NCBI GenBank assembly: GCA_963707915.1
Contig: OY970178.1
Location: forward strand, 2,080,001-2,144,000
Direction of reading: 5' to 3'
DNA: 64,000 nt
Source: Candidatus Eiseniibacteriota bacterium
GTDB taxonomy: Bacteria; Eisenbacteria; RBG-16-71-46
Part shown: one piece after another, positions 1,261 through 18,429 of the stretch
How the letters are laid out: the number at the start of each line of letters is the position of its first letter
Position numbering within the stretch: position 1 is the stretch's first letter
Translations under genes and position numbers: made by a program
The notes under the pieces: model-generated
The model's input: the letters and a program-made list of their open reading frames with translations, nothing else
What the model was told of the DNA's origin: nothing
The model's database searches: none

Positions 1261-1683
1261 GTGCGTGATACCGCTTCGCTGACTGCCTGAAACACGCGGT
1301 CCCGCGCCGCGCCCCTTGTGTCGGTATTCAAGCACCCGGCGAAACCGCGAGTCAACGGAGTTCGCAGGTTCGATCCCGGCGAACGGGATGGTTTCGCCGA
1401 CGGGGAGAATCGGCGACAATGGGGCCGCATGATGTCGCCCTGGCCCGCGCGGTGGAGCCGTCGCGCTTCACCGGACCGCCTTCGCGCACCCACCGGAGAG
1501 CCGCATGAGCCTCAGCCGCTGGTCCGTAGCCGCGCTCGCGATCGCGCTCGTCTGCCCCTTCCCCGCCATGGCCGCTGACGCCGGCGCGCTCGACTCCCTG
1601 GTCGCCGCCGAGCGCGCCTTCGCCCGGGCGTCGATCGAGAAGGGGGTGCGCGACGCGTTCCTCGAGTTCCTCGCCGAGGACGG
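1261..1683 (+). repeat. Left copy of ~422-bp direct repeat bounding the toxin island
   Basis: Aligns by eye with 12779-13200 with about 12 substitutions and one 1-nt indel. Confidence 0.95.
1505..1683 (+). pseudogene. Truncated duplicate of the 5' end of the NTF2/DUF4440-type gene
   Basis: MSLSRWSVAA...FLAEDG identical to the protein at 13022, then runs into unrelated island sequence (stop at 1771). Confidence 0.85.
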
Positions 1684-1781: not shown

Positions 1782-2228
1782 CTACCGTCGGCTGACGGGG
1801 TAACCACTGACCTCCAGATTCAGCTGTGCTTCCGCCACCTGACGCAGGAACCCCGGTTCGAACACGACACTACACGCGAACATCCGTCGGCCTCCCACGA
1901 ACAGCGCGACGTCAATAGTGCTCTCCGCTCCTGACGCCAGTAGGTCATCTATCATTCCTCGATGCCTCTTTAGATAACGTCGCGTGCTTTCTACCAGCTG
2001 CCCTGCCGTCTCTGCCTTCGCTACGCCTACAACAAGCCCGTTCTTATCTGCCACGCGCCCAAGCGCATCCGCCTCGCCCTTGCGCCATACCTTGTTGGGC
2101 CTGAGCCTTGGCCACCTCTTAGAGAACACGTCAACATCAAACCGCTCCCCAGCGCTACGCAGCACTGCACTGAACATGGCTGTCTCTCGCTTGTCGGCCT
2201 TCTCGCCCTTGCTACGTCGGAACTTCAC
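1782..2228 (-). CDS. Putative immunity protein (DUF4279-like by resemblance)
   Basis: Directly downstream of the toxin; GTG at 2228 overlaps the toxin TGA (alternative ATG at 2177); small alpha/beta protein ending LEVSGY. Confidence 0.65.
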   Translation of the reverse strand: MKFRRSKGEKADKRETAMFSAVLRSAGERFDVDVFSKRWPRLRPNKVWRKGEADALGRVADKNGLVVGVAKAETAGQLVESTRRYLKRHRGMIDDLLASGAESTIDVALFVGGRRMFACSVVFEPGFLRQVAEAQLNLEVSGYPVSRR

Positions 2229-4745
2229 ACCCCTGGCATTCGCCGGGCTCCCCGGGGCAGCAGGAAGTCGAAATAGTCGTCTCTCGGAAGCCACACAGGA
2301 ACTGGCACGGCCAACGGCGAGCGGAACCCCGGCGGGTTCTTGGGAGTCCTCAGCCAGGTCTTCCGCTTCCCCGCTCGTGGTTTGCCCTCGTCTTCCCATT
2401 GCTTACACCATCTCCGAGCCTCTTCGCGCGTCAGAACGCGGCCGTGTGGCTCATTGGGCAACACATTCTCATGGAGCCACTCCCAGAACTCCTCACTGAG
2501 GCCGAATCTCGGATCTGTCGCTCTCGGCCAAGTCCCCTCGGGGTCTGTGAAGCCCACGGGATCCCCAAACGCAAAGAGATAGAGATTCTCGCCTCCTGCC
2601 GAGAGCCCCGCCGGATCCTTGCACGTCCACCTTCCCACACCCGGATCATAGTCCCTCGCGCCGAATCTCACCAGCCCTGTTGCCGCGTCCCATAGCCCGC
2701 CGGCGTACCCGAAGCACTGGAACCCAACGTTCGTGTCCTCGAGCACACGCCCGTACGTGTCATAGTCCATCCGCTGTACGGTTTCGCCCGTGGCGGCATC
2801 CAGCACTAGCCGCACCGACCCAAGGCGGTCCGACACAATCCTGTACGTATTCCCGTTCCTCACCATGTACTCCGGCACGTTTCGCGCAGCGCCATAGACA
2901 TACCGCGCAACTACGTTCCCCACGCTGTCCAACTCAGCAACTGGTTTCAGTTGATCCTCGTAGAGCCATCCCCGCCTTAGGACTCCGTTCCATCTGCACG
3001 CGACCCGCCGACTGAGACCGTCGACAAGATACTCCATTAAGTCGCCGCTGGGGAATCCAACCGTCACCAAGTTACCGAGGGCGTCGTACGTGTAGCGGAT
3101 GGTGTCTGCACCAGTCGCCGCCGTCTTGAGTTCCCCTGCCGGTGTGTAGGCGTAGCTGGTTCCGCCGTACCTCAGTAGCCGGTCCTGCGCGTCGTACGTC
3201 GCAGTGCTGGTGTCGCTCGCGCTGCTGTGCGCCAAGCGGTTACCGTTGCCATCGTAGCTGTAGTGCTCTGTGACGCCGTCGACCGTGGCCGCCGACACGA
3301 AGCCCGAGTCTGGACTGCCGTAGGCGAAACCGTATGAACGCTCAGTGCCCTGCACCGTCTCCATCACGCCCACGACGCGCCCCAGTGAATCACGACTGTA
3401 CGTAGCCTCATACAGCGTGGTGCCGTTGGACCTCACCGTGCGCCGCCATAGCTCACCAACGTGCGAGTAGCTGTCCGTGGTCGTGACATTCCCTAGTGTC
3501 GTGCTGGAGACCAGCCCGTTGTCCAACCGTCTCGTGATGGATAGGTCGCCAGCCTGAGTCATCAGCCCGTCAGCGTCGTACGAGTAGACGACGGTGTTGC
3601 CCCCATTGACCCGCTGGCTTGCCACACGGAAGTCGCGGTCCAGCGCCACCGAAACGCTCCCGGTCGCGCGACCGCTCCAGGCTTGGATCGTGTCCACCGG
3701 ACCATCGTAGCCGTACGACAGAAATATGCTGTCCGGCGAGCTGATCGTGTGGAGCTGTCCTGTACTGAGGTAGGACAGTTGTGTGGTGCCACGGCCCATC
3801 CCGATGGCGTAGAGGCGCCCGTCGCCAGACCCGTAGCTGGCTGTCACGTATTCGCCACCGGGACGGTCGCTCCGAACCTGCACTCCGTCGTGGTCGTAGC
3901 TGTATGCGGTCACGGAGTCCGTCTCGCCAGCACCCGGCGCGACGTACGTGCTCAGCGAGTTCACACCATTGTACTCATACGCATGCTGCGGCCGCCCGGG
4001 CGGGGTTATGCCGACGAGGTTCCATTCCTCGTCATGGGACAGCGCGATGGTCCTTCCGCCCGGGAGTCGAATCTCCGTCGGCCGGTCATCAGACAGGTAC
4101 GACAAGCCAGTGACTCGACCCAGTGTGTCACGAATCGTGTTGAGGCGCCCATGTGCGTCGTAGCTGAAGCGGGCGCCTCGCCCGCCCTGATAGACGTGCG
4201 TTGGACGCCACCACGCGTCGTAGCTGCAGTAGAGGGTGGCGAGTCCCTGTACCGACACGCTCTGGACTCGACCTGCCGAGTCCACAACGGTGGTCCTGAC
4301 CCGCCCGGATGGCGAGTACTCCCTCAGGATTAGGCTGTCGGGGTTCGAGTTGAACGTCGTGCGGTACGCCGCGCGCGAGTTGATGCTGACGTCCTGCGTC
4401 CATGTCCCGGTGACCGCAGGAGGAGCGTAGTGCGAGGGCATGGTCCGCGACACCTCGACGGTCCTGGTGAGTCCACTCGGCAGGGTGGTGCGCCTGAGTC
4501 CCAGAACCGGGACTCCCATCCCAAACCGGAGGTCTGGCATGAGGCTGTCGCTGGTGACTATTCCATCCGGCGCATGGATGACCCGCCATCTGCCGTCGCT
4601 GGACTCCGTCATCGTCGTCGAGAGGCCAGCGGGGTCAATGACCTCCCGCTCCCGACTTCCGTCCCAGTTGCCTGTCACCGCATACCCAGTGACGCGCCCC
4701 TCTCCACTGGTCACTTCAACGGTCCGGCGCATGCCCTCGAAGATC
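2225..4745 (-). pseudogene. Teneurin-like YD/Rhs toxin, 3' fragment (YD repeats, Rhs core, ~100-aa C-terminal tip)
   Basis: YD repeats (YDAHGRL, YDGNGNRL, YDALGNL); Rhs core FGYAGGLWD...GARDYDP.VGRW..KDP...DPVGFTDPEG; separated from its 5' half by the IS. Confidence 0.9.
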
Positions 4746-4822
4746 GGGGTGACGTAGCCCCCGGAAGCTGACACAGAACGAGTAGCCAGTCCTCTGCTAG
4801 CCTGAACGGCACGGAGGATCTC

Positions 4823-5092
4823 ATGGCGAGCACGGGGAAGCGTTACAGCGAAGAGCAGATCATCGCGATCCTGAAGGAGGCGGACAGCGCCGGGAACGTC
4901 GGCGAGCTGATCCGGCGCCACGGGATCTCCGCCCACACCTACTACCGCTGGAAGAGCAAGTACGGTGGCCTGGAGGTGAGCGAGGCGCGGCGGCTCAAGC
5001 AACTCGAGGACGAGAACCGCCGACTTAAGCGGATCGTCGCCGACCAGACGCTGAACATCCAGATCCTGAAGGAAGCGCTGGGAAAAGACTGA
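4823..5092 (+). CDS. IS3 transposase OrfA (HTH)
   Basis: RYSEEQIIAILKEA...YYRWKSKYGGLEVSEARRLKQLEDENRRLK. Confidence 0.95.
   Translation: MASTGKRYSEEQIIAILKEADSAGNVGELIRRHGISAHTYYRWKSKYGGLEVSEARRLKQLEDENRRLKRIVADQTLNIQILKEALGKD
5080..5087 (+). other. -1 programmed ribosomal frameshift site (orfA to orfB)
   Basis: G GGA AAA G at the end of orfA; orfB lies in the -1 frame, as in IS3 elements. Confidence 0.7.
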
Positions 5093-5172
5093 CGACGGCT
5101 GCGGCCCGGCGCGCCGCCGTCCTGGAAGCCCGTTCACGCCATGCCGGACTCTCGGAGCGACGCGCCTGCACG

Positions 5173-5940
5173 GTGCTGGGTACGCCGCTGTCGGGCCAGC
5201 GCTATCGATCACGTCGCGCTCCGCAGGAGGCGCTGCGCCAGCGGCTGCGCGAGCTGGCGCTGATCCGGCTGCGCTGGGGCTATCGGCGGTTGCATCGCGT
5301 GCTCACGCGCGAGGGGCTGCGGGTGAACGTCAAGCGCGTCTACCGCCTGTACCGCGAGGAGGGTCTGGCCGTGCGGCGGCGGAAGCGCAAGCGGGTGGCG
5401 GTGGCGCGGCAACCGATGCTGGTGCCGACGCGGCTGAATGAGTGCTGGGCGATGGACTTCATGTCGGACGTGCTGTCGAGCGGACGACGCTATCGGGTGT
5501 TCAATGTGGTTGACGTGCTGAGCCGCGAGGCGCTCGCCGCCGAGGTCGACACCAGCCTGCCGGCGGCTCGGGTGATCCGGGCGCTGGAGGAGATTGCGAT
5601 CATGCGAGGCTATCCGGCGCGGATCACGCTCGACAACGGGCCGGAGTTCCGCAGCATGGCGCTGGACACCTGGGCGTACGAGCACGGGGTGGTGCTCGAC
5701 TTCATCCAGCCCGGCAAGCCGATCCAGAACAGCATGGTGGAGAGCTACAACGGTCGGATGCGTGACGAGCTGCTCAACCTGCACTGGTGGCGGAGCATCG
5801 GCGAAGCGCGCGACGCGATCGACGCCTACCGGCAGGACTTCAACGAGGCCCGGCCACACAGCGGCCTCGGTCACAAGACGCCGAGCGAGTTCGCCCGGCA
5901 CTATGCGGTAAACTCGAACCCGCAGCGGCTGGCCTCTTGA
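5173..5940 (+). CDS. IS3 transposase OrfB (DDE integrase core)
   Basis: WAMDF, VVD, LDNGPEF, PGKPIQNSMVESYNGRMRDE, RPHSGLG. Confidence 0.95.
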   Translation: MLGTPLSGQRYRSRRAPQEALRQRLRELALIRLRWGYRRLHRVLTREGLRVNVKRVYRLYREEGLAVRRRKRKRVAVARQPMLVPTRLNECWAMDFMSDVLSSGRRYRVFNVVDVLSREALAAEVDTSLPAARVIRALEEIAIMRGYPARITLDNGPEFRSMALDTWAYEHGVVLDFIQPGKPIQNSMVESYNGRMRDELLNLHWWRSIGEARDAIDAYRQDFNEARPHSGLGHKTPSEFARHYAVNSNPQRLAS

Positions 5941-5967
5941 TCTGTACCAGCGTTGGGGGCTACGTCA

Positions 5968-8900
5968 GGGGTGCTCAGCTGCTGCTGGATTCCCGTCGAG
6001 AGCGGCGCCCAATCCTCCGCCAGTCGCCCGTCACTCGCGTAGGTGAACGTATGTTGGTTACCCACGGCGTCTGTGTAGCTCTCGAGCAGACCACTGGTGG
6101 AAGTTGTAAGCGTGACGGTCGCATCCAGCGGACCACTCATCTCACTCAAGTATCCGTTTGCATCGAGCGAAAGCGTTGTGCGATGGCCGTAGGGCCCATC
6201 GATCCACAGCGGGACGCCGTTCCCGTCGCGGCCGATGGTTGTCGCCAGACCCGCCGCGTCGCGGATACTGGCCAACCGCCCCGCAGCGTCGTAGCCGAAC
6301 CGGTAGCGGATGCCTCCGGTCACTCCATCGCGCGTGTAGAGGTGTCGCCCAGCAGAATCCCCCTGCGTGGCGAACACGTACACCTCGCTGCCGTCCTTGC
6401 TTGGCACGCTGTACGCGAGCCCGTTCTCGGTGAGAGGCGGGGATTCCTTCCAGAGCATGAAGTGCCCGCCCAGGACCAGCTTGTTCTCGGGGCTGCAGGT
6501 CACGACCACGGCATGCACCAGGCTGGTCGCATCCATGGGGCCCGGTGCCTCAGCTGGCAGGGACACGGAAGGGGAATACGCGTAGACGTGCTCCACCGTG
6601 CCATCCTGGTTGCAGCGGAGCAGCAGACGCCCCCACGCAAAGGCGTAGTTGGGGGGGGAAAGCGATCGTGTCAGCAAGTAGATGGCCCCATCAGGGGCCA
6701 GCGCGATGTCGTACACCGCGCACCACGCGCTCTGGAACTCGGGTTCGTCGACGGCGGGGTAGCCGTCAAAGAACAGGCTCATGATTCCCTGGGGCGTGAC
6801 CCGGCGGACCTTGAGACCCGGACGTCCCTCGGCAATGTACAGCGCGCCGTCTCGATCGACCTCCAAGTCCTCAGGCCGCCCGATGTTCATGAGGGTCGCT
6901 CTTCCAGTCGTGTCGCTGAAGCTGGACCCACCCGCCCCGGCGTAGTCAGTGATCGTCCCGTCTGTGCCGATTCTCCTGACGCGGAAGTCTGTTGTTGACG
7001 AGTAGCTCGGACCGTTGCATTCGCCCAAGAAGAGACTCCCATCAGGGCCCAGGGCGAGAGACGAGATATGGCCGGTCCACGCGGCCTCCGTCGGCAGTCC
7101 GTCTCCACCACCCGCAACGTATCCAGCGCGTCCACCGATGACCTTGTGGATCATGCCATCAGGCGTCACAACACAGACCAGGCTCTGGTCCGGTGCCGCG
7201 TCATTGCTGGACGCGACGTAGACCGAACCGTCCGGCCCAATCGCAAGCCCGGTGATCCTGTTTGGGAAAGAGCGTTCGCGCGCGGGCCCGTCTCCACTGT
7301 ATGCGGCGCGCTGGTTCGTGCCGGCGATGCGTCTGACCATGCCGCTGCGGTCCACTCGCAGGACTGAGTACCGGCAGTCGTCTGCGATGTACAAGGCCCC
7401 ATTCGGACCGTATGCGACGCGTGTGGGATACACGGACAGCAACTCCCCCGAGTCTGGCTCGGCGGTGTCGCACAGGCCTGTCGCGAGGTTGTGCCACATG
7501 TGGCTCGGCACAGGCAGCACACCCCCATCCCCAAGGTAGACGGCACCTTCTGCCGTCGGATCGAAGGTGTGGTGTGGGCTCAGGGTCCAGCCTCCCAGGC
7601 CGTCCACAGCAGTGCCCGGCACGCCGAGGCTGATTGACTGCCGGTTCCACACGATCTGGCCGACCGCCCGGTCTCCCACCGTCAGCCCGAGCATGCCTCC
7701 CGTGTATGAGGCGTTCCCGAATGACTTCGCAAGTCGCTCCGCCGAGCCACCGGCGATCGACAGGGGGAACACATAGCCGACGCTCACCTTCGCAGTGATC
7801 GCCCGATCCACGAAGCGCCCGTAGGCGTCACGCCCATCCCACACGAGCGTCACCGGTTCCGTGGCGGACGTGATGGGACCCGGTACTCTGACTGAGTACT
7901 GCTTCCCGGCGACATCGAGATTGACGATCACCCCCTGAAGCCCGTTCGGCACCGTCTCGCCAATCACGGGGACCCGGATCGTTCGCATGACGGCATCCCC
8001 GGGCGCCCGGAAGCTCCTGTAGTTCAGGGAGTAGGGAGTGCCGGACACCGGCACACGCTCGCCCAGCGTCCTATCCTCGCACTCGATGATGGACCCCTGA
8101 ATCTCGCATGGCTCCGGGGTCTTCGACTCCATGTGCGGCACGGTCCCCGGCCTTCGCACGTAGTCCGTGAGCGGTGCCACGCTGAAGTTGCAGTCGGCAT
8201 TCGAGAACCGATCGACCGAAGTCCGACAGAGCACCGCGCCCGGGCGGTACTGGGCTGCCAGCACCTGGAGTTCGGCTGCGCCGATACCCAGGCTGTCCAG
8301 AGTCGAGGTGCTGTCACGTGATCCGTCCCCGCTCACGTCGAGTGCGGCCGTGCCAGCGCTGTCGCCAAGGACCTGGATGATGCGGGCGTCCCTGCCAGCT
8401 ACCCACCTGCCATTGCGCCGATCATAGTACCCGTAGGGCACGACAGTACCGACGGGGTAGTCGAGGAAGTTCGGGACGTAGAACACCACGGGCTTGGAGA
8501 ACACCACATCAGGGGCCGGCAGCGTGGGTTGCAGGATTCGTCCTATGGAATCGGCCTCATCCACGCTGAAGTCCACGCAGTACGTGTAGGCTGTCGCGGG
8601 GGGCAGTAGGGCTGGCATGGCCTTGGCGCCGTCCGCCCCCACGGTGTACTCGGTGAGTCGCAAGCGGATGTCGGTCAGCGCCGCGGTGTCACCGGGTGCC
8701 CGTGCGATCCGCGCCACCGTCCCCCCTTGGAACAGCACTCGGATCTCCCGGTCCCCGTTGGCATCCGTGGAGAAGCGGCCGTGCACGACCTGAAGCGAGT
8801 CGAGTTGGACCACATGCACGCGACGGCTCTTGCCGATCAGCGCAACGGTGTCCTGGATGGCGAACTCGTTCACCGCCGGCAAGCAGGCACGCTGCGCTTC

Positions 8901-10550
8901 CAGATACCCGGGCTTGCTGAAGCGCAGGGTCAACGGCGCACCGCCATTGACTACCAGGTCGAACTGGCCGTCGGCTCTGGTCGCCGTGTATCCGAATTCG
9001 TCGTGGCCAAGGACTCTCACTGTGACGTTTGGGAGCGCACCGAAGTCCCGCGCCGTGACACGCCCGCGAACAACGGCCGCCACCTCCGGCCTCAGGCTGT
9101 CTGGCACGACATCGTACTGTTGCTGAGATCCGTTCTCACCCGTGAACAGGAAGCTCACCTGGTCCAGAAACGGCGTGGTCGTGGTTGCGTTCAGGGGTGA
9201 GGGTGTGACCGTGGAGTCCGGCGGCGCACCCTCTCCGACCAGCGTGCGGAACACGTAGCGCTTGAAGCTCGTCGTGTGGCCCAGCGCATCGGTCGCGCGG
9301 AAGAAGATACCGTTGGGACCGACGTCCAAGTCCAGCGTGTCGACAAAGGTCCCAGCGGTCCCCACCGCGACCGGCTCGCCGTCCACTTCGACCACGGTGT
9401 GGGTGATGTCGCTCCACGACCCCGAGACGATCCAGAGACTATCGGTGGTCGGCGAGGTGGCCTCAGGCACGGTGAGCGTCGGAGCATGCGTGTCCCGAAT
9501 CACGGTGCGCACAAGCTCGGTCGAGTACCCCGCGCGGTTCGCGGCATGAACGGTCACCGTGTGGGCGCCCTCGGAAGACAGCGCCAGCGAGTCGGCGAAG
9601 TAGGTGGTGACCGTATCGCTCGTCACGTGCGCGGTCAGCGAGTTCACCTGCACCGTGCCGGGCGTCTCGTCGCTCACGCTGCCGCTGATCGTCACGCGGC
9701 TCGAGTCCACGAGCAGCGTATCCGTAGCCGGACGCAGCAGCGCGAGCCGGGGCGCAGTACTGTCGGTCGCCGTGACTTCGACCTGCGCGCGGGCATCCGT
9801 GCTGCCTGCCAGCGAGAGCGAATAGTCGTTGAGCGAGTCGAGTGCGACCCGCCGCGTGAGCCGGGCCGTGCCCGACCCGAACTCACTGCTGCTGATCACC
9901 TCGTCGCCGTTCAGGCCGAGGATGCCGCCGGTCACACGGTGGGTGCCATCGGGGTCGCCGTTGGTCAGGATCAGGGTGTAGGGGCCCCTCGCGCTGTCCG
10001 ACTTGGTGAACTCCCCGTCGAACTCCTGCCAGCCCGCCGGGGTGGAAGCCCGCGTGTGCGTGGCAGGCCCGTGGATCCGGTACGACGACGGGTCCGGTAT
10101 GCTCACCAGGTCCAGGCGGATGTGGCTGCCGGTTGACCCCTTCTTGACCCCCACGGTGAGTGCGTTGCTCTCCAGCGGCTCGGCCCTCTTCACCGCATAG
10201 GCCACCGTGCTGGTCACGTCCGCGGCGTTCATCAACTCCTGGTCGTTGAGGCAGAGGCTCACCTGAGCAACGCGATGGGTGCCGTTGGGGTCCCCGTTGG
10301 TGATGCGGAACTCGTACCGGCGGGAGACGTCGTAGTTGCTGAGGTCGAACGAGGTGTCCTTGACAGTCCAAGTCGGACTGCCACAAGTGAACTGACCCGG
10401 CCCGAACACCACGGTCGTCTCCGGCGGACTGCTGCTCAGACTCGTCACCCGCACCCCACCTCGCGGCAACGGCGTGCTCCCGGCCACCAGCACCAACCCC
10501 AGGAGCCCGAGCAGAACAGCCAGCGCGCGCTGCCTCCTGGCCACGTTCAC
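5968..10550 (-). pseudogene. Teneurin-like protein, 5' fragment (signal peptide, Ig-like domains, TTR/FN-plug, NHL propeller, first YD repeats)
   Basis: Hydrophobic N-terminus; VVRGRV...GYTATRADGQFDLVVNGG, ERVPVSGTPYSLNYRS, WDGRDAYG...VSVGY, GGWTLSPHH; NHL repeats (GPNGALYIAD, GPDGSVYV). Confidence 0.9.
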
Positions 10551-12691
10551 TGGAGCACCACCACTCGGTCGGTGCGCGTCACGCGCCCCTGACCCAGGCG
10601 GATGAAGTACATCCCACTACGGAGGTGCCCGGGCAGCCTCAGTCGCACCTCATGGTCTCCGGCCCCCAGATCACCGAACTCCCGTGACAGCACCCTTCGA
10701 CCCGCGACGTCGAACAACTCGAACCGCGCCGGCTCGTTGGTCTCCAAGGTCAACGCCACGCGCACCACACGGCCGCGTTCCTCGCTGCGTGCGAACCGCA
10801 GCGCTAGCGGCTTGGGCAACGGGATCTTCACGTCCACCGTGGCGAACTGGATCTCCTGCTGTTCGTCACCGACCTTGACACTCAGCCCGTACTGGGCTGC
10901 GCTTCCAACCGGCACCGTGCGGTCCTCGGCGACTAGCAGCCCGTCGGCCGCGGCTTGAAGCGCGCTCAGCGACTGCCACGCTCCATCCCCCAGGCGCCGC
11001 TGGAACAAGAACACGCGCTTGTCCGCCGTGCTGGTGCGCCAGGTGAGCTTCGCCCGCCCCGGGCCCACCTCCACGGCCTCGAGCTTGGGGACCGGCCCGG
11101 TGCGCGGCGCCTGCAGGGCCAGGAACCCCGCCAGCGCCTCGACCCGGCCGTCCACCCAGGTGGCCAGCGCGCCCCCGGCGCCGTCAGGGGCCAGCCTCAC
11201 CGCGTACTGATCGCCACCCGCCACGCAGAGCGCCACGCCGTCGTCGGCCCACTGCGGCACCCCGGCACCGGTGATCCGCCGGGCATAGATATCGCTGTTG
11301 CCGTTGCGGCGGTCCTCCCAGGCGACGATCGCCCCGCCCACGCTATCGCTGACAAGGGCGGGCATCGCCGGGGCACCGCTCGGCCCGCAGAGCTGCACGC
11401 CGCTCGTGGGCCACTCCACGTGCCCTGCGCCGCTCAACCGCTGGGCACGGATCCCGGTCGAGTCGGCCCAGGCCACGATCGCCCCGTGCGCACCGTCACC
11501 CACCGCTACGGTCTGCCGCATCCGGCCCCGAGTGGTCGAAAGCCTGACTCCGGCAGAGGGCCAGCCGGTTGCCGGCCGGCCGTTGGCACTCAAGCGCAGG
11601 GCTGAGATCCCGGGGAGCGTATCGCGCCGGCTCCCCCAGACCAGAATCGCCCCACCCTCCCCATCGCTCGTCAATGTCGGATTCGTTGGGTCCTCGCCGC
11701 TCGTGACCAGCGTGTCGCCGCCTGCCGCCGCTCCCGCAGCGAGTTCGCCCTGCGGGGTGAGGTGCTGCACATACAGGTCCGCGACCCCACGGCGGCGGTC
11801 CCGCCAAACAATCAGCGCCCCGCCTTCGCCATCGGACACCACGGCGGGGGAACTCTGGTCGGCTGGGTGGTCGCACACCGGCACCCCATCCACACCCCAC
11901 GCGGGCTCACCGGCGCTGGTCAGGCGTTGAGCGAAGATGTCCCCGGACGCGCCGGAGCGGAAGTCCGTCCACGCCACGATCACGCCACCGGCACCGTCAC
12001 TGGCGAGTGCCACCCCGTACTGCGAACCGCGGGCGACGCAGACCGGGACACCATCGGTGGACCAACCCGGCCAGAGCGAGTCTGCGGCGGCGAAGTGCTG
12101 GGCGTAGAGGTCGCCCTCCTCCATCCGGTTGTCCACCCAGACCACGATGCCACCGCCCAGCCCGTCACGAATCATGCTCGCCGCCACGCCCTGCGCGCTG
12201 CCGAGGCAGAGCCGCGACTGCAGCAGGCTGGTGTCCGGCGCGATCGTGCCATCTGCGCCCACGTGCTGGGCCTGGATCGCCAGGGAAAGCCCGCTGCGGA
12301 AGTCGGTGCAGGTGGTGCACACGCCGGGCAGGGAATCCGGCCCTGACTCCCCGCCCGCGACAATGCCCCCGCCAGGCTGCGGGGCCCCGGGCCGTACCGT
12401 GCTCGCCACTGGCGGCGTCGCCTCGCCGGGGAAGACCTGGTCGGCACCGCCCACCTCGTGCCAGCGGCCTGACCCCGGAGTTGCTCTAGGAGGCACCTGA
12501 GTGCCGCGCGCTCCGGGCTGGGGTTGATCTACCCACGGCCCACGATCGCCCGGCGCGCCGGGCGCTGGCCGCGTGGGCTGCGGGGCTTCGTTTGGCGGAG
12601 TTGGAGCCTGCGGGGCCTTGCTGCGAAGAGTCGGGGTCCAAGCAATGCAGGCAAGGGACAGGAGCAGCATCAAACCGCGGCCAGGCCCCAT
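10547..12691 (-). CDS. Secreted 7-repeat beta-propeller protein with T9SS type A/FlgD-like C-terminal domain
   Basis: ATG at 12691 with GGAGAG RBS; signal peptide; Pro-rich linker; seven DGxGGaivaWxDxR repeats; C-terminus FDVAGRRV...LRSGMYFIRL...VVVLQ; TGA overlaps the teneurin-like GTG. Confidence 0.8.
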   Translation of the reverse strand: MGPGRGLMLLLSLACIAWTPTLRSKAPQAPTPPNEAPQPTRPAPGAPGDRGPWVDQPQPGARGTQVPPRATPGSGRWHEVGGADQVFPGEATPPVASTVRPGAPQPGGGIVAGGESGPDSLPGVCTTCTDFRSGLSLAIQAQHVGADGTIAPDTSLLQSRLCLGSAQGVAASMIRDGLGGGIVVWVDNRMEEGDLYAQHFAAADSLWPGWSTDGVPVCVARGSQYGVALASDGAGGVIVAWTDFRSGASGDIFAQRLTSAGEPAWGVDGVPVCDHPADQSSPAVVSDGEGGALIVWRDRRRGVADLYVQHLTPQGELAAGAAAGGDTLVTSGEDPTNPTLTSDGEGGAILVWGSRRDTLPGISALRLSANGRPATGWPSAGVRLSTTRGRMRQTVAVGDGAHGAIVAWADSTGIRAQRLSGAGHVEWPTSGVQLCGPSGAPAMPALVSDSVGGAIVAWEDRRNGNSDIYARRITGAGVPQWADDGVALCVAGGDQYAVRLAPDGAGGALATWVDGRVEALAGFLALQAPRTGPVPKLEAVEVGPGRAKLTWRTSTADKRVFLFQRRLGDGAWQSLSALQAAADGLLVAEDRTVPVGSAAQYGLSVKVGDEQQEIQFATVDVKIPLPKPLALRFARSEERGRVVRVALTLETNEPARFELFDVAGRRVLSREFGDLGAGDHEVRLRLPGHLRSGMYFIRLGQGRVTRTDRVVVLQ

Positions 12692-12778: not shown

Positions 12779-13200
12779 GTGCGTGATACCGTTTCGCTGA
12801 CTGCCTGAAACACGCGGTCGCGCGCCGCGCCCATTGTGCCGGTACTCAATCACCCGGCGAAACCGCGAGTCAACGGAGTTCACAGGTTCGATCCCGGCGG
12901 ACGGGCGGGTTTCGCCGACGGGGAGAATCGGCGACAATGGGGCCGCATGATGTCGCCCTGGCCCGCGCGGTGGAGCCGTCGCGCTTCACCGGACCGCTTC
13001 GCGCAACCACCGGAGAGCCGCATGAGCCTCAGCCGCTGGTCCGTAGCCGCACTCGCGATCGCGCTCGTCTGCCCCTTCCCCGCCATGGCCGCTGACGCCG
13101 GCGCGCTCGACTCCCTGGTCGCCGCCGAGCGCGCCTTCGCCCGGGCGTCGATCGAGAAGGGGGTGCGCGACGCGTTCCTCGAGTTCCTCGCCGAGGACGG
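12779..13200 (+). repeat. Right copy of ~422-bp direct repeat
   Basis: Matches 1261-1683; continues into the intact gene. Confidence 0.95.
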
Positions 13201-15505: not shown

Positions 15506-16594
15506 TCACCCCCCCGAGGCGTACTTGCGCAGCGCCGCGCGCACCTGGAGCAGGTCGCCGACGTTGTCCAGCGTCACGAGCCCGACCAGGCGCCCCTGTT
15601 CGAGCACGGACACCACCGGGCACTCGCGGCCGCGCATCCGCGCCACCACGGCCTCGAGCGGCTCGTCGGCGTCGGCGCTGCACGGGTTGGGGCTCATGAC
15701 CTCCCCCACCGGCACATCCAGGCCGTGGCGCTGCAGCGCCGCGACCAGCCCGGACCGGGTCAGCACGCCGCACAGCATCGCGCCTTCCAGCACCGGGAAG
15801 TCCTGCTGGCTGCCGGTCATCAGGTACTCGACCGCGCGACGCAGCGGCTCGCGCACGTCCAGGTGCCGGAAGTCGGTGAGCATCGCGGCCCGCACCGGGA
15901 GCCCGGTGAGCGAGGTGCGGGTCTGCACCAGGGCGCGCTCCTCGCCCGCGGCGATGAAGACGAACAGCGCCACGAAGGGCAGCATCCACTGGTGGAAGTA
16001 GAAGAACCCGGCGACGCCGAGCAGCAGGGCCACGCCCTGGCCGACGGCCGAGGCGATCTTCGTCGCCCGCAGGTAGGGCAGGCGCAGCGCGAGCAGGGCC
16101 CGCAGCACGCGTCCGCCGTCCATCGGGAAGGCCGGGACGAGATTGAACAGCAGCATCAGCACGTTGACCACGAGCAGCGACTCGACCAGGCCGCTGCCGA
16201 AGTGCGCGAGGTCGGTCGACCACCCGGCGATCGTCATGAGGAGCACCAGCAGCGCCGCGATCACGACGTTCACCAGCGGGCCCGCGACCGCGACCAGCAT
16301 CTCCTGCAGGGGCTTCTCGGGCATCCGCTCGAGGCGCGCCACCCCGCCGATCGGCAGCAGCACGATGTCGCGCGTGGCGATGCCGAAGCGGCGCGCCGTC
16401 AGCGCGTGGCCCAGCTCGTGCAGGACCACGCAGCCGAACACCAGCAGCAGCAGCGCCACCGCCTCGCCTGCCCGCCGGACGTCCCCGGCCAGCAGGCCCT
16501 GGTTGACGGCGATCCAGCCGATGAACAGCAGGAAGGTGACGTGCAGTTCGACACGGATGCCGAACAGGCTGCCGATGTGGACGGACCAGCGCAT
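15506..16594 (-). CDS. M50 site-2 protease with C-terminal CBS pair
   Basis: HELGH, AGPLVN, NLVPAFPMDGGR; CBS domains; GGAGG RBS. Confidence 0.9.
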   Translation of the reverse strand: MRWSVHIGSLFGIRVELHVTFLLFIGWIAVNQGLLAGDVRRAGEAVALLLLVFGCVVLHELGHALTARRFGIATRDIVLLPIGGVARLERMPEKPLQEMLVAVAGPLVNVVIAALLVLLMTIAGWSTDLAHFGSGLVESLLVVNVLMLLFNLVPAFPMDGGRVLRALLALRLPYLRATKIASAVGQGVALLLGVAGFFYFHQWMLPFVALFVFIAAGEERALVQTRTSLTGLPVRAAMLTDFRHLDVREPLRRAVEYLMTGSQQDFPVLEGAMLCGVLTRSGLVAALQRHGLDVPVGEVMSPNPCSADADEPLEAVVARMRGRECPVVSVLEQGRLVGLVTLDNVGDLLQVRAALRKYASGG

Positions 16595-16671
16595 CGCTCT
16601 CCTCCGGGACGCCTCAGTCTCGCACAAGCCTCGCGCCCCCCGCCAACCGTGCCGCGCCGTGGCGGAGGCGA

Positions 16672-16793
16672 CGGCGGTGGGGCGAGCGTTCGTTCACCCG
16701 GCCGCCCGCCTTGCGATGCGAAAGCGGTCGAGGGGATGGCTGGTGGGCGAGCGTGTGTTCACTTAGCCGTCCACCAGCCATCCCCTCGACCGC
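16672..16793 (+). repeat. Two hairpin repeats, family A (GGGC-GAGCGT-N6-AC-N3-GCY core)
   Basis: Cores at 16684 and 16749; the second is enclosed by a 25-bp stem (16724-16793) with one G-T pair. Confidence 0.7.
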
Positions 16794-16850
16794 GGGCAGA
16801 AGGCTCTTCTGCGCTGGCGACAGGAGTTCGAAGGTGCCAAGCCTGACGAA

Positions 16851-17471
16851 TCAGGCCGCGCGTTCGTCCTCGGGGGACTCGTCGTCGCCCGGCTCCCCGC
16901 CGATGCGGAAGTCCTCGGTGGGGACGTCCTCGCCCGCGTCGAAGAACGACGTCAGGGCCGCGAGGTCGCGCTGTGCGTCGGTGTAGCCCGGGTTGATCCA
17001 CAGCGCGTGCCAGAGCAGCCGCAGGGCCATCTCGAGGCTGCCGACCTCGACGCACGCCGAGCCCGCCCGGTACCACAGCACCGGGTCGTGCGGCGAGCAC
17101 GACAGCCCGCGCAGGGCGTACGAGAGCGCCTCCCGCTCCTCGCCCTCCCGCAGGGCGATCTCCGCCGCCTCGGCGAAGGCGCGCGCGGCCTCGGCATTGG
17201 GTGCCGGATCGAGCCCGGGGATGAGCAGCTCGAGCTCGCCCATCACCAGCTTCAGGGTGTGGGTCACGTAGGGCTCGAGGCCCACGGACTTGTGCGTGAG
17301 CACGCGGTCCGCCAGGTGGGCCAGCGCACGTGTCACGTCGTTCAGCGTCGGTCGCGGGGAATCGGGCACGGCAGGTCTCCTGGGGACCGGAGTCGCGCCT
17401 GCCGCTCGTTGGTCGTCGCTGGACCCACCCTTCGATGGGCACCCAGCAGGGCGCAGGCGCGGAAGACTCAC
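16851..17471 (-). CDS. TPR-like hypothetical protein
   Basis: Helical TPR-like segments (LSCSPHDPVLWYRAG...ALWINPGYTDA); start uncertain. Confidence 0.6.
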   Translation of the reverse strand: MSLPRLRPAGCPSKGGSSDDQRAAGATPVPRRPAVPDSPRPTLNDVTRALAHLADRVLTHKSVGLEPYVTHTLKLVMGELELLIPGLDPAPNAEAARAFAEAAEIALREGEEREALSYALRGLSCSPHDPVLWYRAGSACVEVGSLEMALRLLWHALWINPGYTDAQRDLAALTSFFDAGEDVPTEDFRIGGEPGDDESPEDERAA

Positions 17472-17541
17472 GGTCCTGCACTCGTTATCGGCACAATCGC
17501 GGAGGACTTGATGAAGTGGGGAAAAAGGCCGTGAAACGGCC

Positions 17542-18429
17542 TCAAAGCCTCGCGAAACGGGGCTCCGCGACCCGCAGGAACTGTTCCAGCAGGTTCCCCG
17601 CGACCCGCCGCCGGTACTCGCGGTCCGAGCGGATGTCGTCGATCGGCGCGATGTCCTCGAGCAGCGCCGCGCGCGCCGCGGCCGCGACCGCGACGCCGGG
17701 GCGGGCGCCGAGCAGCGCGCGCTCGGCCCGGGCGGCCCGCAGCGTGACGGGTGCGACGCTGCCGAGCGCCACCCGCGCGAGGTCCACGCGGCCGTCGCGT
17801 CCGACCCGCAGCAGGCCGGCGAGGACGACCTTGGAGATGCTCTGCGCGCGGCGCGTCCCCACCTTGCGGAAGAACTGCCGCGCGCGCGCGGGAGCCGGCG
17901 GCAGGCTCACGGCGGTGATCAGCTCGTCGGGCTCGAGCGCGAGGTCGCGGTAGCCGCGGAAGAGGCCGGTGAAGGGGACCTCGCGCGGGCCCCGCAGGGA
18001 GCGCGCATGCACCACGGCCTCGAGCGCCAGGAGCACGGGCAGCGAGTCGCCCGCCGGCGAGGCGTTGGCGATGTTGCCGCCCAGCGTCCCGCGGTTCTGG
18101 ATCTGCCAGGCGCCGACCTCCGCGGCCGCGGCCGCGAGCGCGGGATAGCGCCGCCGTACCTGCGCGTGTTCGCGGACCTCGCTGAAGGTGGTCAGCGCGC
18201 CGAGGACCAGCCGGCCACCCTGCCCGCGCACGCCCCGCAGCTCGCGCAGGCCACCCAGGTCGAGGAAGCGCACCCCGGGCACCACGCCCGAATTGAGCGT
18301 GACGAAGAGATCCGTGCCCCCGGCCAGCGGCACCAGCCGCCCGGTGCCGAGCGAGGCGTGCAGCAGCTTCAGCGCGTGGGCGAGGTCGCGCGGGCGGGCG
18401 ACCTCGAGCGTGGAGAGCGGCGCCCTCAT
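17542..18429 (-). CDS. Xanthine dehydrogenase family FAD-binding subunit
   Basis: AGGTDL, QIQNRGTLGGNIANASPAGD, PIDDIRS. Confidence 0.9.
   Translation of the reverse strand: MRAPLSTLEVARPRDLAHALKLLHASLGTGRLVPLAGGTDLFVTLNSGVVPGVRFLDLGGLRELRGVRGQGGRLVLGALTTFSEVREHAQVRRRYPALAAAAAEVGAWQIQNRGTLGGNIANASPAGDSLPVLLALEAVVHARSLRGPREVPFTGLFRGYRDLALEPDELITAVSLPPAPARARQFFRKVGTRRAQSISKVVLAGLLRVGRDGRVDLARVALGSVAPVTLRAARAERALLGARPGVAVAAAARAALLEDIAPIDDIRSDREYRRRVAGNLLEQFLRVAEPRFARL

Follow-up and report, generated by a model that had tools for sequence, protein, structure and literature searches.

Bacterial teneurin-like proteins (TLPs) have been described as shell-enclosed polymorphic toxins that are accompanied by downstream immunity genes and occur in six phyla (Raoelijaona et al., Nat Commun 2026, PMC13018210). 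As far as that account goes, they possess no obvious delivery machinery, their route to target cells is unknown, and the text of the study makes no mention of Eisenbacteria, Gemmatimonadota, type IX secretion (the T9SS), or an upstream partner. Here we analyze a TLP locus at positions 1782 to 12691 of a 64,000-nucleotide stretch of DNA, referred to as the window throughout, which covers positions 2,080,001 to 2,144,000 of contig OY970178.1 (assembly GCA_963707915.1) from a soil bacterium of Candidatus Eiseniibacteriota. The locus consists of three genes on the minus strand, coding for a propeller protein (gene 1), a TLP (gene 2), and a small immunity-like protein (gene 3). We read it as a mobile three-gene polymorphic-toxin cassette in which gene 1 would provide a dedicated partner for T9SS-type export or anchoring of the toxin, and we assign this reading a probability of about 0.5.

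Like the TLPs as portrayed by Raoelijaona et al. (PMC13018210), the toxin of the window combines TTR and NHL domains with a YD-shell superfold that encloses a short, polymorphic toxin at the C-terminus, carries a Sec signal peptide, is followed immediately by a small gene, and shows the patchy distribution of an accessory trait. Unlike the TLPs presented there, it is encoded together with a conserved and coupled partner that bears a C-terminal domain (CTD) of the T9SS type. Such domains tag cargo to be exported across the outer membrane via SprA, PorV, and PorU and to be attached to the surface. The closest precedent for such an arrangement, going by the published description, is given by the TANFOR toxins of Bacteroidetes, which lack a CTD, are enriched beside CTD-bearing predicted T9SS cargo, and for which export by T9SS has been hypothesized (Jana, Salomon and Bosis 2020, PMC7073777). 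As described for TANFOR toxins, a toxin with a Sec signal and without CTD is encoded here by a gene adjoining that of a CTD-bearing protein. However, according to the same description (PMC7073777), the scaffold of those toxins is the TANFOR domain and no YD shell is present, their neighbors are SprB-repeat proteins, they belong to another phylum, and the link between toxin and neighbor is a statistical enrichment of neighborhoods, whereas a strict, coupled one-to-one pair with predicted binding is encountered in the window.

Other known systems share single aspects with the cassette. As in the ABC toxin complexes (Tc), there is a YD-repeat cocoon around the toxin, a separate subunit would serve delivery, and a propeller would sit where the subunits meet, but the cassette has no TcA-like pore-forming subunit, and the propeller, which in Tc forms part of TcB, is a separate CTD-bearing protein. 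Rhs effectors of type VI secretion systems (T6SS) consist of a YD shell with Rhs core and a C-terminal toxin, are encoded with an immunity gene, and employ PAAR or VgrG proteins and Eag-type chaperones; their N-terminal region and a dedicated accessory protein decide on the secretion route. The cassette resembles them in shell, core, and layout of toxin and putative immunity gene, and the N-terminal region of its toxin and the accessory protein would likewise decide on the route. In contrast to them, it encodes no PAAR, VgrG, or chaperone, its toxin has a Sec signal, and the accessory protein is itself of the Sec and CTD type. The particle of the umbrella toxins reportedly includes a propeller adaptor as well. 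The umbrella toxins differ from the cassette in their scaffold and in being produced by a Gram-positive host, where neither an outer-membrane step nor a CTD is involved. In the account of PMC11062931, they are polymorphic toxins of Streptomyces assembled as multi-protein particles. For Tc, release by lysis (type X secretion system, T10SS) is cited in PMC13018210. The pair of gene 1 and gene 2 fits the scheme in which a polymorphic toxin possesses an N-terminal module that defines its route and is joined by an accessory protein. In the literature on T9SS, Rhs/YD proteins, polymorphic toxins, Eisenbacteria, and teneurin secretion, the supplementary tables of PMC13018210 and PMC7073777 aside, no description of a pairing between a propeller and a TLP was found.

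Conserved pairing of propeller and toxin

The source genome is complete and has 3.62 Mb with 72% G+C; its GTDB family includes metagenome-assembled genomes (MAGs) labelled Candidatus Eisenbacteria. The following features make up the locus and its borders (coordinates are those of the window; aa, amino acids; ORF, open reading frame).

1303..1683, no strand: left member of a pair of 381-bp direct repeats, which duplicates, in truncated form, the region upstream of a DUF4440 gene and the 5' end of this gene (blastn)
1782..2228, minus strand: gene 3, immunity-like ORF of 148 aa counted from a GTG, in GTGA overlap with the toxin stop
2225..4749, minus strand: C-terminal part of the toxin gene (gene 2), with YD shell, Rhs-associated core, and a variable tip of ~100 aa (Pfam, NCBIfam)
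4750..5967, plus strand: IS3-family insertion sequence (IS) splitting the toxin gene (inverted repeats, transposase families)
5968..10550, minus strand: N-terminal part of the toxin gene, with signal peptide, four immunoglobulin (Ig)-like beta-sandwiches, TTR, NHL, and the start of the YD shell (Pfam, AlphaFold2)
9756..10433, minus strand: toxin residues 40-265, first two beta-sandwich domains and predicted docking site for the propeller (complex model, co-variation)
10547..12691, minus strand: gene 1, coding for the partner propeller protein of 714 aa, P0001 (repeats, TIGR04183, AlphaFold2)
10550..10804, minus strand: T9SS type A-like CTD of gene 1, residues 630-714 (TIGR04183; beta-sandwich in the model)
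12821..13200, no strand: right copy of the 381-bp direct repeat, overlapping the start of an intact DUF4440 gene (blastn)

A first-pass annotation of this DNA had described three minus-strand genes joined by GTGA overlaps, and the ORFs are indeed found in this arrangement: the GTGA at minus-strand positions 10550-10547 comprises the gene-1 stop TGA and the gene-2 start GTG, and the GTGA at 2228-2225 comprises the gene-2 stop and the GTG start of gene 3. It had also stated that the island contains no VgrG, PAAR, or TcA gene, which agrees with our finding that the three genes and the IS alone lie between the flanking repeats. No PAAR or VgrG domain was detected with Pfam or NCBIfam in the three genes or their neighbors, to which the T6SS search was confined. 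The genes beside the cassette are housekeeping genes.

The toxin is present in 20 of 206 scanned genomes of the phylum, all of them from one family. At each of the 20 other places in this family that hold a toxin 5' end, a homolog of gene 1 is encoded directly upstream on the same strand, so the adjacency of homologous toxins to such propellers, which had been put forward as a check, holds within the family; five places are devoid of a gene-1 homolog, and all five are also devoid of the toxin 5' end. Detailed inspection of the pairings covered 19 loci. An exact 4-nt stop/start overlap, counted from the first start codon, exists in 10 of 20 loci, and in the remaining ones the signal peptide of the toxin starts at the gene-1 stop or at most 39 nt after it. 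In the reverse test, which took the best 21 near-full-length gene-1 matches from 89 genomes of the family, 18 were adjacent to a toxin, one was situated at a contig end, and two were toxin-less; this test also yielded two additional propeller-toxin pairs. The comparative data overturn the reading of gene 1 as a chance neighbor. At one locus (L090:10953-11793, in G141:C35), a second gene-1-like ORF with 71% identity to residues 119-241 starts ~2.2 kb downstream of the toxin and is cut off by the contig end; it may belong to a tandem second cassette.

Homologs of the toxin are widespread and occur in Gemmatimonadota, Acidobacteriota, Myxococcota, Pseudomonadota, Actinomycetota, and other phyla. 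No gene-1 homolog was encountered at any of 54 toxin loci of other phyla, for which flanks of up to 10 kb were considered, and four toxin-bearing genomes of other phyla contain 1, 0, 0, and 0 CTD matches, respectively. The partner is restricted to a CTD-rich lineage, and its presence only where CTD-dependent export exists fits the role of an adaptor. A separate observation concerns a MAG labelled Gemmatimonadales (G209, locus L006), which codes for a toxin 43% identical to that of the window and has 27 CTD matches; its toxin 5' end lies off the contig, so that a partner is not judgeable, and its label or binning may be off.

For gene 1, a signal peptide, a propeller of seven repeats, and a C-terminus of the T9SS type A kind had been claimed; the propeller and, by a narrow margin, the C-terminus are borne out by closer analysis. 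The N-terminus shows an Arg-bearing n-region followed by a hydrophobic stretch and, judged by eye, resembles a signal peptide; residues 1-120 comprise this segment and a disordered, Pro-rich linker of ~100 aa. Seven repeat units start near residues 176, 232, 287, 343, 399, 449, and 503, and the AlphaFold2 model (predicted local distance difference test, pLDDT, 76.8) presents a seven-bladed propeller at residues 121-515, followed by an Fn3-like beta-sandwich at 536-622 and by the CTD at 630-714, which is modelled as a beta-sandwich over residues 630-712. The C-terminus scores 23.8 bits against TIGR04183, and 28.3 bits in the genome scan, which at a cut-off of 23 is a borderline pass; matches to the same model at E <= 0.01 are found in 15 of 16 gene-1 orthologs.

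Several paralogs of gene 1 are encoded within the source genome. In a maximum-likelihood tree of 25 proteins, gene 1 of the window groups inside a clade in which all members are toxin-adjacent (SH-aLRT 97), and six paralogs from the same genome make up another clade, which also includes one non-adjacent copy (SH-aLRT 98). A motif C-x-D-x-x-[ST]-G is located at the start of the mature protein in 14 of 17 toxin-adjacent propellers; of the three that miss it, two are truncated at their 5' ends by contig borders and the third carries a variant. The motif is present in none of eight paralogs and in neither of the two toxin-less look-alikes. The toxin-adjacent propellers form a dedicated, partner-specific subfamily.

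Co-variation was assessed by comparing the identity of gene 1 with that of individual toxin segments among 17 loci, giving 136 non-independent pairs. The Spearman coefficient with gene-1 identity is 0.80 for toxin residues 40-265, 0.54 for residues 266-445, 0.24 for residues 446-1000, and 0.18 for residues 1001-1520. In one contig from a metagenome, identity amounts to 83-89% for gene 1 and 92% for toxin residues 40-265, as compared with only 47% for toxin residues 446-1000. The complex of gene-1 residues 121-628 with toxin residues 30-480 was modelled in three runs, accompanied by three controls, and scores of 0.69, 0.85, and 0.71 (median 0.71) were obtained versus 0.00 for the best control. 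The runs have at least 61% of contacts in common, with a pLDDT of at least 76 for the partner, and the predicted interface is formed by one face of the propeller, including gene-1 residues 130-135 with the private motif, and by toxin residues 57-250. Modelling of the propeller with the N-terminal toxin domains had been suggested beforehand as a check; binding is predicted, the controls are silent, and the model supports, as a prediction, a direct contact between partner and toxin. The view of gene 1 as a dedicated partner is well supported by adjacency and complex model, and the two proteins probably form a functional complex.

Mobility of the cassette

The genes that flank the propeller-toxin pair are mostly unrelated from one locus to another. 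In the window, the 381-bp direct repeats, which are 97% identical (blastn), bracket exactly gene 3, toxin, and gene 1, and in two toxin-less genomes of the same genus (G139 and G135) the left and right flanks are joined directly, representing an empty site. The G+C content at third codon positions (GC3) is 0.81-0.82 for gene 1 and the N-terminal part of the toxin, 0.74 for the C-terminal part of the toxin, and 0.63 for gene 3, and values of 0.90-0.97 are found for the neighboring housekeeping genes. From the shared GC3 and the empty sites that lack gene 1, we conclude that gene 1 arrived with the toxin. An alternative in which gene 1 is a native neighbor of an inserted toxin, as a drop of overall GC at the gene boundary might suggest, was rejected because GC3 is equal in both, the empty sites of G139 and G135 do not contain gene 1, and the pairing of the orthologs is constant. 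Propeller, toxin, and gene 3 are co-inherited as one mobile unit.

Repeats and empty sites suggest that the cassette integrated by a single crossover or is able to loop out. An apparent joint from 12997 to 1500 in contigs from soil runs was discarded, as it is explained by the 381-bp repeat alone. At four loci, a small tyrosine recombinase of ~210-225 aa (PF00589; Pfam scan of three of these copies) is encoded 0.7-2 kb from the pair (L091:1098-1772, L093:12982-13623, L096:2911-3540, and L101:15741-16367) and may be part of the mobility of the cassette. At three of these loci, the recombinase adjoins a protein with Ig domains of the HYDIN/ASH type.

Export route and competing explanations

Components of a T9SS-type export apparatus are encoded in the source genome. 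There are 78 CTD matches, 72 of them over the cut-off; the translocon SprA (TIGR04189) is represented by one 2352-aa frame, the best piece of which scores 221.5 bits and which in sum reaches 501 bits (cut-off 200); the sortase PorU scores 464.9 bits (cut-off 420), and the gene directly after PorU matches the model of the shuttle PorV with 81.2 bits (cut-off 250).

The earlier proposal that the propeller carries the toxin across the outer membrane, or anchors it there, is well supported in its first part, the partnership; for export or anchoring as the role of the partner, which we infer, we consider the chances to be evenly balanced. In such a mechanism, the 4-nt overlap would couple translation and provide a stoichiometric pair, both members of which would enter the periplasm via Sec. 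There, one face of the propeller would clamp Ig-like domains one and two of the toxin, and the CTD of the partner would engage the SprA/PorV/PorU route for a toxin that has no CTD of its own. The toxin would then be either co-exported or tethered on the cell surface, where it could meet competitors. That this constitutes a hitch-hiking branch of type IX-like secretion which depends on an adaptor, serves a CTD-less toxin of ~260 kDa, and operates without a detectable GldLMN motor, is a tentative proposal and seems to us somewhat doubtful.

A number of points weigh against export or anchoring by the partner. The CTD match is weak, as more than 23 bits are reached only by P0001 and by 1 of the 16 orthologs. 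A search for T9SS genes in the genome, which had been named as a check, turned out positive for SprA, PorU, a PorV-like protein, and 78 CTD matches, but GldL, GldM, and GldN were undetected in the source genome (TIGR03517, TIGR03513, TIGR03523, and PF12081) and control genomes were silent too, so that divergence of these proteins is indistinguishable from their absence. Across eight genomes of the genus, GldM was undetected, and GldK reached 85.1 bits only (cut-off 350). A canonical T9SS motor is not demonstrated in the source genome, and CTD-dependent export in this lineage may be running on a divergent or different motor. The main physical doubt concerns size: SprA has a pore of ~7 nm, and a folded YD shell plus NHL propeller is about as wide or wider, which makes it doubtful that the complex could pass in folded form. 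To our knowledge, hitch-hiking through T9SS has never been demonstrated. For three toxin homologs (labels Gemmatimonadales, Longimicrobiales, and Gemmatimonadaceae), the alignment begins at toxin residues 30-59, yet these homologs have no partner; they appear to share the N-terminal domains, which therefore do not exist for docking alone. Physical linkage of adjacent DNA could equally yield the observed pattern of co-variation. The calibration of the complex score, in which 116 of 157 solved complexes and 2 of 215 mismatched pairs attained the mark of 0.71, is approximate for our complex because own alignments were used. No RNA runs containing the locus are listed.

The chief rival explanation, to which we give a clearly smaller chance, considers the propeller as a targeting or adhesin subunit that is displayed via its own CTD, whereas the toxin leaves the cell by lysis or in vesicles and meets the propeller outside, where the latter binds a receptor of the target cell. 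Adjacency, coupling, co-variation, and predicted binding would be explained in the same way. In a fold search with the partner model, the best matches are sialidases and GH43 proteins, i.e., sugar-binding enzymes consisting of propeller plus Ig domain, at low TM-scores of 0.27-0.32. TLPs from CTD-free phyla manage without partner, so export may not be limiting, and a targeting propeller would be comparable to lectin and propeller subunits in the umbrella toxins of Streptomyces, in the roles generally ascribed to them, or the A subunit of Tc. However, such a function leaves unexplained why the partner is restricted to a CTD-rich lineage, the predicted contact occupies a whole propeller face and leaves less surface for a receptor, and the 4-nt translational coupling suits an assembly before export.

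Predicted binding to the N-terminal domains of the toxin and tight gene coupling are also compatible with a periplasmic chaperone or safety device for the toxin N-terminus, in which case the CTD would merely dispose of the propeller, and Rhs toxins of T6SS are known to need dedicated N-terminal chaperones. The CTD-like end, though, is kept in 15 of 16 orthologs and the Fn3-like spacer is conserved, which is typical of displayed cargo, and the N-terminal domains of the toxin are ordinary beta-sandwiches rather than hydrophobic segments wanting shielding; we regard a chaperone as improbable. Little weight is given to the idea that the two proteins do not interact at all and that gene 1 codes for a co-transcribed surface protein travelling with the cassette. 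CTD proteins abound in the source genome (78 matches in 3.6 Mb), propeller paralogs are numerous, and the complex model passes falsely in the 2 of 215 mismatched pairs mentioned above, but mere co-travelling is difficult to reconcile with an adjacency maintained at 20 of 20 other places despite differing flanks, with a private subfamily and private motif, with co-variation specific to the first domains of the toxin, and with complex controls at 0.00.

The cassette represents a concrete and testable candidate for the delivery of TLPs. If export or anchoring through the propeller is true, bacterial teneurins would have a first delivery machinery and type IX-like secretion a first cargo adaptor, and CTD-dependent secretion could move CTD-less proteins through adaptors. 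The hypothesis on TANFOR toxins, as formulated in PMC7073777, would gain a first mechanistic model, and in an uncultured soil phylum, T9SS-type export would acquire a role in conflict between bacteria. Were the partner a targeting subunit, the pair would still define a two-component form of TLPs.

The toxin gene, its insertion sequence, and the remaining genes

Without the IS, gene 2 comprises 8326 - 1218 - 4 = 7104 nt, i.e., 2367 codons plus stop, and the arithmetic agrees with the 2367 aa given in the first-pass annotation. Pfam assigns TTR_TEN1-4 (PF25020) with 76.5 bits (cut-off 27), TEN_YD-shell with 82.8 bits (cut-off 50), and NHL (PF01436) with 24.5 bits (cut-off 20), and TEN_NHL remains under its cut-off of 27.1 with 19.8 bits; Glucodextran_B and RHS_repeat are matched as well. 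The Rhs core (TIGR03696; 66 bits, cut-off 32.5) is located at residues 662-738 of the C-terminal part and is followed by a tip of ~100 aa without family, in accordance with the Rhs motif and variable tip that had been noted at the end of gene 2; the tip displays weak Ntox34-like features. Judged by these domains, gene 2 codes for a bacterial TLP, predicted to be exported by Sec and to enclose a variable C-terminal toxin in its YD shell. The AlphaFold2 model of residues 1-480 (pLDDT 82.8) contains four Ig/Fn3-like beta-sandwiches within the first 440 residues, and fold searches with the partner and with the N-terminal toxin models retrieve generic propeller or Ig/Fn3 matches at low TM-scores. 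PF24329, which we take to be the FN-plug family, is assigned to many toxin homologs; for FN-plug, no Pfam match at E <= 0.01 was obtained in the toxin of the window. The toxin is single-copy in the source genome, and 317 homologs of ~2300-2500 aa were collected.

Fused propeller-toxin proteins, in the sense of a Rosetta stone, were looked for among 120 listed toxin homologs, no part of which resembles gene 1 (blastp, E <= 1e-3). A word-index search with the N-terminal toxin domains among proteins of 397-2000 aa gave two matches, and a full scan gave 271, mostly N-termini of proteins of ~2300-2800 aa; from the 150 matches listed, 11 shorter ones were checked and turned out to be fragments of TLPs or proteins with Ig repeats, and a second class of cargo with these domains was not found among the matches checked. 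Orphan fragments resembling the toxin shell and core are located downstream of full toxins at L096:15031-15978 and at L104:13825-15072 and 15698-17629, as is usually seen where C-terminal modules of Rhs proteins have been displaced.

The IS3 element at 4750-5967 has perfect 13-nt inverted ends (TG...CA), is flanked on both sides by GGGG, and contains orfA (4823-5092) and orfB (5173-5940), with matches to HTH_Tnp_1, rve, and NF033516 (218.9 bits, cut-off 160). A second copy with 100% identity resides at G000:C1:456053-457270 of the source genome, and a 50-bp end remnant exists at a third site (G000:C1:3453094-3453143). The identical second copy indicates that the element has been active recently and that disruption of the toxin is recent; from the sequence, the toxin gene of the source genome is evidently inactivated by this insertion. 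The left junction of the element is also present in a contig of run X1, and no uninterrupted toxin allele was seen among the contigs of four soil runs, which consist of sparse short pieces.

Gene 3 had been regarded as small and immunity-like, and a small ORF overlapping the toxin stop is confirmed. It most likely encodes the immunity protein of the toxin. An alternative start is the ATG at 2177, 17 codons inward. No family was assigned to gene 3 by Pfam (none at E <= 0.1) or NCBIfam, and language-model features of the segment 1785-2177 are DUF4279-like (0.93, 29 of 30 matches), which is to be taken as a lead only.

The propeller paralogs of the source genome were considered as possible adaptors for other cargo, an idea that was rejected since, among seven checked, not one is followed by a coupled gene of comparable large size. 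One paralog (G000:C1:448710-450278) is followed 69 nt later by a gene for a secreted protein of 305 aa with NHL-like repeats, and another, at 1333473-1334960 of the source genome, shares a 4-nt overlap with a membrane-protein-like ORF of 391 aa.

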